Source: Escherichia coli
Lineage (GTDB): Bacteria > Pseudomonadota > Gammaproteobacteria > Enterobacterales > Enterobacteriaceae
Assembly (NCBI RefSeq): GCF_003790525.1
Contig: NZ_CP033635.1
Reading direction: 5' to 3' (one strand)
Length of the DNA: 64,000 nucleotides
Every line of letters begins with the position of its first letter. The first letter of the stretch is position 1. The translations under genes and the position numbers were made by a program. Below the pieces are notes generated by a model, which saw only the letters and a program-made list of their open reading frames with translations, was not told the DNA's origin and ran no database searches. Shown here piece after piece: positions 10,255-10,766 of this stretch.

Positions 10255-10766
10255 TCAACGAGGTTTTCTGTCTTTTCGTCGGTCATTCAGCATCATTAAA
10301 CGGGTCTCTGCCTCTTTCTGTTCCTGTGGTGTCACTTCCCCGCACGGCTGACCGTTCAGGTTGTAACGGGCGCCACCTGCTATTAACGCACGGTAATAGC
10401 GCGGAGACTGCACATAAGACGCCACTGCTGCATGTAATGTACCAGCGCCAAACGCCAGTTCTCGGATGGCGATATCCTGTATCAGGTCGTCAGGTATCCC
10501 CACTTTAAGTGGTTTTGTTTTTTTCCCGGTTGAATGACTCAGGCCAGAGTTCCACAAGACGAATAATGCGCTTACGGTTTTTGCTCTGGCGTTTTGTCAT
10601 GTCGCCACGGTGTTTTATCAGCAGGTTTCTGTTTATCGTTCAACTGTGGTATCTGGTCACCGGCCTTCATTTTGTATGCTGTGTCCGTTTTATCCTGCAG
10701 CGGCGTTGCCGGTGATTTACTGAAAATACCCTGCGGTTTACAGTTAATGGTCAGAGTTACCATCAA
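10255..10766 (-). pseudogene. FinO/ProQ-domain RNA-binding protein gene broken by two single-base frameshifts
   Basis: ORFs 10572..10766 and 10255..10557, plus a third-frame segment NRKRIIRLVELWPESFNREK between them. Removing one base from the T5 run (10578-10582) and one from the T7 run (10518-10524) restores a ~170-aa ORF. The restored RIIRLVELWPESF...PLKVGIPDDL mirrors the ProQ N-terminal FinO domain. Confidence 0.7.

Follow-up and report, generated by a model that had tools for sequence, protein, structure and literature searches.

The locus at 10255-10766 on the minus strand of a 64,000-nt stretch of an Escherichia coli genome (contig NZ_CP033635.1; hereafter, the window) raises the question of how a gene for a FinO/ProQ-family protein came to be split among three reading frames. 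The first-pass annotation had offered three explanations, sequencing or assembly error, slippage-driven on/off switching, and genuine decay; only the last was borne out, the same fixed lesions being found in about 350 genomes. The locus is very probably the pseudogene remnant, inherited and fixed, of a FinO/ProQ-domain gene carried on an island, that is, a product of plain decay. Its status as a pseudogene is already on record, as the frameshift is flagged by PGAP.

Reading frames and domain content of the locus

The pseudogene (10255..10766, minus strand) runs from an ATG at 10763-10761 to a TGA stop at 10257-10255, and is represented by three ORF pieces on the minus strand, at 10766-10572 (64 aa), 10600-10505 (31 aa), and 10557-10255 (100 aa). 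Two runs on the plus strand, T5 at 10578-10582 and T7 at 10518-10524, had been proposed as the sites at which the frame could be repaired. Their positions were exact, and removal of one base from each yielded a continuous ORF of 168/169 aa. The further prediction, that the three segments join into one FinO-domain protein of ~170 aa, also held: the reconstructed 168-aa sequence matched the Pfam profile PF04352 with a score of 74.3 bits (E 9e-21, cut-off 27), far beyond chance, and the 100-aa piece alone (segment 3) reached 62.3 bits.

The frames were assigned by tblastn of an intact homologue, P0005 (88% identical), against the window. Residues 1-55 ended at 10599, residues 56-84 started at 10600 in the next frame, and the remainder lay in the third frame, with the second frame change near residue 84, at the A7 run (the T7 of the plus strand). 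Segment 1 (10599..10763, minus strand; frame -3, 94.5% identity) corresponds to the N-terminal tail, residues 1-55, which is predicted to be disordered in the model of the intact homologue; it contains the conserved MxxLTINRKP motif, and its frame continues to a stop at 10574-10572. Segment 2 (10525..10600, minus strand; frame -1) covers residues 56 to about 82 (MTKRQSKNRKRIIRLVELWPESFNREK) and encodes helix alpha-1 of the FinO domain, which spans residues 58-73 in the AF2 model of P0005; in that model, the A7 lesion falls between this helix and the remainder of the fold. Segment 3 (10255..10517, minus strand; frame -2) holds the remaining FinO domain (KPLKVGIPDDL...PCGEV...), without helix alpha-1, covers positions 23-107 of the 109 in PF04352, and includes the peptide VGIPDDLIQDIAIR in its frame. 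The 100-aa piece begins at a TTG that, as read from the sequence, is not preceded by a ribosome-binding site.

No ORF in the window encodes the whole FinO domain, because helix alpha-1 resides in the 31-aa middle piece and is cut off from the rest of the domain by the A7 lesion. The frame changes at 10600/10601 and again at 10518-10524, and no second copy of the gene was found within the window. With no remaining ORF for a whole FinO domain, the locus would make no functional protein, and no functional RNA chaperone is to be expected from it. In near-identical genomes, the same 509-nt span is called ‘ProQ/FINO family protein, frameshifted’ by PGAP.

Location and origin of the two lesions

Set against intact alleles, the first lesion proved to lie 18-24 bases further upstream (in gene orientation) than first placed and to be of another kind. 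Two +1 frameshifts, both in homopolymers, had been proposed in the first-pass annotation; this reading stood for T7, which is an A6 run grown to A7, and not for T5, which has its ancestral length and lies downstream of a 2-bp deletion. The deletion removed AT from a CATATG (C--ATG in the window), with its junction at 10600..10601 (minus strand) shifting the frame between residues 55 and 56. DNA alignment revealed GCGACATATGACAAAA in two intact alleles (L003/L005) opposite GCGAC--ATGACAAAA in the window, and alignment with an independent lineage (L021/L022) likewise supported a 2-bp deletion, with the A5 length unchanged. The lesion lies in a short ATAT repeat, outside any homopolymer, and its effect on the frame equals +1. 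The A5 run itself (10578..10582, minus strand; T5 on the plus strand) carries no lesion, the sequence CAAAAAC being shared with both intact alleles.

The second lesion (10518..10524, minus strand) is a +1 insertion into an A6 run, giving A7, as established by DNA alignments. The ancestral sequence of the site is GGGAAAAACCAAAACC, and a C-to-A substitution made the A6 run that is present in P0021-type alleles (L006-L009). Intact homologues of 168-171 aa (P0002, P0005, and others) read ...DKTPWRH-MTKRQRKNRKRINRLVELWPELFNREKPKPLKV... across this region.

One allele reproduces the proposed repair. A single 1.25-kb contig (Logan contig ERR10499703_2632; L010:393-899) carries an in-frame allele, P0001, in which the 2-bp deletion is combined with A4 in the first run (-2 -1 = -3) and A6 in the second, matching the first-pass reconstruction exactly, which explains why repair at T5 looked plausible. 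P0001 may be a true revertant or an assembly artefact; the leader of the same contig also has a 35-bp deletion. A frameshift that is ‘repairable’ in a nearby homopolymer need not, then, have arisen there.

The alleles suggest an order for the events that would have led to the window copy. An intact gene of ~168 aa would first have lost 2 bp (AT) from CATATG, parting the tail (residues 1-55) from the FinO domain. A C-to-A change would then have made GAAAAACC an A6 run, and replication slippage would have added one A, giving A7 and parting helix alpha-1 from the remainder of the domain. The window copy would later have gained a private substitution, CGT to TGT (Arg8 to Cys; 10740..10742, minus strand), identified by alignment with other alleles. 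This R8C change, at 10742, is the sole difference from the commonest allele over 631 bases (best matches 99.8% identical over 631 nt), at a residue conserved in at least 90% of 68 homologues.

Allele census and competing explanations

The distribution of the lesions was surveyed by megablast in 5,426 complete E. coli genomes. The gene family is present in about 1,100 of them (~20%), and a copy at least 99% identical to that of the window in 334-341; the same 512-nt span was recovered in all sampled matches at this identity (18 rows of a 60-row spread). Each lesion was then scored with queries of 85-88 nt, a length at which the ≥99% band amounts to an exact match. Among the 434 genomes matching the allele group at the A run, A7 was found in 347, A6 in one (APEC IMT5155), and A8 in none; at the deletion site, 364 of 376 matching genomes had the deletion and none had the AT restored. 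The carrier strains came from chickens, pigs, cattle, humans, and water, and from many laboratories. All three inspected copies of the window allele, including that of SMS-3-5, bear the PGAP label ‘ProQ/FINO family protein; frameshifted’. Having spread through carriage on its island, the doubly broken allele has become the most frequent form in its allele group in E. coli. The orthologue check across strains thus found the two lesions fixed in close copies, and intact relatives existing as well.

The intact relatives are single ORFs of 158-180 aa, and evidently evolve under purifying selection (pairwise dN/dS 0.17-0.32). The N-terminal M-x-x-LTINRKP motif and the M56-TKRQRKN stretch are near-invariant in the clade. 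At columns conserved in at least 95% of 68 full-length homologues (about 55-61 columns), the window sequence departs at five positions (L77S, P83T, R111H, D135N, and K137N), compared to a median of one in intact members. Alleles with a severed N-terminus likewise showed a mean of 2.65 departures from conserved residues, about twice the 1.3 of intact alleles (one-sided Mann-Whitney p 0.02 and 0.002), although the sequences are related and the test is indicative only; that the excess comes from non-independent sequences is a point against decay. For the window allele and its nearest intact counterpart, pairwise dN/dS was 0.27, which lies within the family background and does not discriminate decay from constraint, and which suggests that inactivation was perhaps recent relative to the divergence of the alleles.

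A second abundant lineage, ~89% identical (P0073/P0066; L021:2790-3125, L022:2790-3125; L023), carries an independent 5-bp CTGCT tandem duplication. It lies ~25 nt upstream of Met56, with CATATG intact, and severs the N-terminal tail while leaving the same 114-aa ORF that starts at Met56; most sampled alleles at ~89% identity have this form, which PGAP annotates as ‘frameshifted; internal stop’. Among eight sampled loci, four were intact (158-174 aa), two were split into 63 aa and 114 aa with A6, and two were pseudogenes, and further truncated, fused or chimeric, or internally deleted forms are numerous in the protein database. The gene breaks repeatedly.

The alternative that survives best is residual function, in which low-level slippage during transcription, or frameshifting by the ribosome, at A7 yields some 114-aa FinO-domain product begun at the internal ATG at 10600, or in which the 64-aa N-terminal ORF has an activity of its own. 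Met56 and the residues that follow are near-invariant in the clade, the 114-aa ORF from Met56 is left by each of two independent lesions, found in two abundant lineages, and this ORF spans the whole predicted FinO fold and is annotated as a protein by PGAP in A6 alleles. The low-frequency A6 alleles, in which the ORF is intact, and the in-frame P0001 are a further point against the reading of the locus as decayed. We nonetheless consider residual function improbable: the ATG at 10600 is not preceded by a Shine-Dalgarno-like sequence, and A7 needs a +1 shift rather than the -1 shift that, as reasoned from the frames, the A-AAA-AAC heptamer favours. The severed alleles have the roughly doubled load of conserved-residue departures given above, and A6 alleles are vastly rarer than doubly broken ones, which argues that the short ORF is not being preserved. 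It is hardly likely that the independent severing of the tail just ahead of Met56 in two lineages reflects selection for an isoform consisting of the FinO domain only, started at Met56, with A6/A7 as a slow on/off switch, or, in a lesser version, that trace protein is made via slippage.

Reversible on/off control of the FinO protein through slippage at A7 alone or at both tracts, as at a contingency locus, is very improbable. The tract does lie inside the ORF and sets its frame (A7 at 10518-10524; a length of A6 would share its frame with segment 2); A6 alleles are on record, as is an in-frame A9 allele, and a rare allele with A4 in the other run restores the frame, so that run-length changes do occur, as the A6 alleles and P0001 attest. 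Phase-variable tracts, however, normally vary in length among strains, whereas the length of this one is nearly invariant in the counts above, and, at seven bases, the tract is short by the standards of phase-variable homopolymers in enterobacteria. Some of the A6 calls, moreover, derive from multi-megabase contigs, in which homopolymer errors are possible. The upstream 2-bp deletion is fixed, and a slip back to A6, the ON length, would therefore leave it in place and could not restore the full-length protein. Intact homologues lack a homopolymer at the site and read AAAAACC.

Programmed recoding, by ribosomal or transcriptional slippage, was rejected because the intact homologues are single, unsplit ORFs that keep CATATG and, further on, read AAAAACC where the window has A7.

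That the odd bases are artefacts of sequencing or assembly, and the real gene intact, has virtually no chance of being correct: one lesion does lie in a 7-base homopolymer, a classic error site on some platforms, but the other is a 2-bp deletion outside any homopolymer, and the recurrence of identical lesions in 347-364 complete genomes obtained independently, by many laboratories, from many hosts, and over many years, among them SMS-3-5, which we take to be an older Sanger-era genome, excludes assembly error.

The protein family and its mobile elements

The assignment to the FinO/ProQ domain family made in the first-pass annotation was supported by the Pfam match, by a sequence search of the PDB, and by the fold modelled for an intact homologue. 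The reconstruction scored 50.1 bits against the NCBIfam FinO subfamily (NF010317, cut-off 136) and 48.5 bits against the NCBIfam ProQ equivalog (NF003434, cut-off 127). Passing PF04352 while falling far under both of these cut-offs, the locus would have encoded a FinO-domain protein of a separate clade, neither FinO nor ProQ proper. A profile of the intact relatives matched the solved structures of ProQ, FinO, RocC, Lpp1663, and NMB1681. The fold was assessed on intact P0005 rather than on the broken window sequence: in its AF2 model, the N-terminal 50 residues are disordered, residues 52-168 adopt the FinO fold (pLDDT 70-85), and the best 27 Foldseek matches in the PDB were all FinO, RocC, NMB1681, Lpp1663, or ProQ. 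Tyr70 and Arg80 of ProQ are described as essential for RNA binding in a passage of PMC7491321 that cites Pandey et al. 2020. Their equivalents in the clade, putative RNA-contact residues, are Tyr123, which is invariant, and Arg133, shared by at least 90% of the clade. Both are retained in the window allele, which nevertheless has R111H at the residue aligned with ProQ Arg58.

The closest structural match was FinO of F-like plasmids, which has the same FinO domain (PDB 1DVO; Foldseek E 6e-7, rmsd 2.0 Å over 102 columns; profile match to 1dvo, E 5e-15), is also encoded on a mobile element, and likewise carries a flexible, basic stretch N-terminal to the domain. It differs in that identity is ~30-35% over the domain only, with the subfamily score noted above, and in that the window gene lies in a chromosomal island rather than a tra operon, with no FinP/traJ-like antisense pair identified; the MxxLTINRKPKGIY N-terminal motif is specific to the island clade. 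The N-terminal FinO domain of ProQ, the enterobacterial chromosomal RNA chaperone (PDB 5NB9), aligned with E 8e-17, whereas the island protein is without the ProQ linker and C-terminal Tudor-like domain, and its gene is accessory (in ~20% of E. coli genomes) rather than core. RocC (7rgt), NMB1681 (3mw6), and Lpp1663 (6s10) share the fold (Foldseek E 1e-6 to 4e-5) at only ~30% identity. A lineage-specific N-terminal region and location on a mobile element have been described for FopA (PMC7491321), and the island clade resembles it in both respects.

In a species-level genome scan, only two extra loci were found, in E. ruysiae and E. albertii, and the clade appears largely confined, in that collection, to Escherichia and close relatives. 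Plasmid matches were all less than 60% identical, and the sampled ones, including those annotated as FinO and ProQ/FinO, at most 38%, with the exception of three mislabelled chromosomes; phage matches were limited to Sodalis phage phiSG1 and one Cronobacter phage. Relatives at 50-60% identity are very common, P0113 occurring in about 4,000 blocks of the collection. Distant intact relatives (L014-L020, around 2500-3900) lie in a string of genes for DUF4222, DUF927 (primase/helicase-like), SSB, FinO, and PerC (or a small ORF), found in Escherichia, Salmonella, and Citrobacter, and belonging to a different mobile element from the island of the window. This string resembles AlpA-primase phage satellites (PICI-like); ProQ/FinO-like and PerC genes are catalogued among the accessory genes of int-alpA-primase satellites in Enterobacter (PMC13612085). 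The window copy differs from those of the satellites in that it is broken, is oriented convergently to UCP030791 and AlpA, and has neither SSB nor PerC as a neighbour.

The first-pass view that the gene is island-encoded proved correct, its setting being a CP4-like integrative element (YagK/YfjJ, AlpA, UCP030791, FinO, and then cargo). The order in the window begins with genes for a CbtA/YeeU toxin-antitoxin, RadC-like, antirestriction, DUF932, and GTPase proteins, followed by YagK/YfjJ and a hypothetical gene; it continues with AlpA (9252-9488, plus strand), UCP030791 (9689..10237, plus strand), the FinO pseudogene, its leader, a degraded IS1, a transketolase fragment, a broken (frameshifted) transposase, and a YadA-like adhesin gene. 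The AlpA-family gene and the gene for the UCP030791-family protein, which is convergent with the pseudogene, were identified from ORFs and from annotation and Pfam matches of equivalent loci. The stop codons of the FinO and UCP030791 genes are 17 bp apart (10237-10255; 1 bp in L003) with no terminator between them, so that their transcripts probably overlap at the 3′ ends. The degraded IS1-family element (11152..11857, minus strand) abuts the leader and is annotated by PGAP at the equivalent place as ‘IS1 family transposase; frameshifted; internal stop’; at 11151, homology to the other variants of the island is lost, and IS1-like end sequence is present at 11152. Since A6 alleles without the IS1 element (L006-L008) have intact LacI-PTS-transketolase cargo at this place, the island of the window has also lost cargo. 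The surroundings of the pseudogene are degraded.

Elsewhere in the window, the Rfam ALIL pseudoknot (RF01497, 116 bits), the frameshift-stimulating element of IS3-family transposases, was matched at 27512-27628 (minus strand). The match, which makes an IS3-family element likely in this region, overlaps the 5′ end of a minus-strand ORF of 296 aa (26696-27586). A full-length match to Ysr276 (RF02850, ‘Yersinia sRNA 276’, antisense type; 183 bits) at 55969-56163 (minus strand) is unrelated to the FinO locus.

The adjoining ‘long non-coding stretch’, a 384-nt leader upstream of the gene (10767..11150, minus strand), was considered as a possible home of a partner RNA. This idea was not sustained. 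Rfam, searched over the entire window with gathering thresholds and over 9200-11500 with E relaxed to 1, gave no match near the gene, and the folding energy of the leader gave no structure signal (z +0.49 sense, -1.92 antisense). The leader is ~92% identical to that of an intact allele and is present in 774 genomes, but ~250 nt of it are absent beside L023 (a pseudogene) and L025 (intact), and in L026 the leader gives way to unrelated sequence. Alignment of leaders from ten lineages revealed large deletions and replacement, with only the ~40 nt before the start codon consistently kept. In all CP4-type lineages, these ~40 nt (10764-10800, minus strand; …CCATTGACAGCRCGAGGTAACAA…ATG) contain a GAGG ribosome-binding site and, ~25 nt ahead of the ATG, a TTGACA hexamer; a consensus scan of 10100-11500, which included the conserved TTGACA site, called no sigma-70-like promoter. 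Terminator-like hairpins in 10100-11500 were at chance level (two found, 1.2 expected). The T7 run forms the tail of a weak terminator-like hairpin at 10500-10524 (plus strand; CCACTTTAAGTGG then TTTTGTTTTTTT), antisense to the gene. Remnants of SSB or PerC, sought in the leader since distant relatives have SSB upstream, were not found.

As a decayed accessory gene, the locus in the window matters little in itself. Its intact ancestors are presumed, from homology, to have bound structured RNAs of their mobile element. A literature search for experimental study of the island-borne clade returned only FinO/ProQ reviews, the FopA paper, and the satellite survey that lists a ProQ/FinO-like gene. 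Intact members of the clade, which is represented in about one fifth of complete E. coli genomes, are the sensible subjects for work on RNA partners, rather than the window copy. On CP4-like islands and on AlpA-primase-SSB-PerC satellites, such proteins could be dedicated chaperones for the RNAs of those elements.
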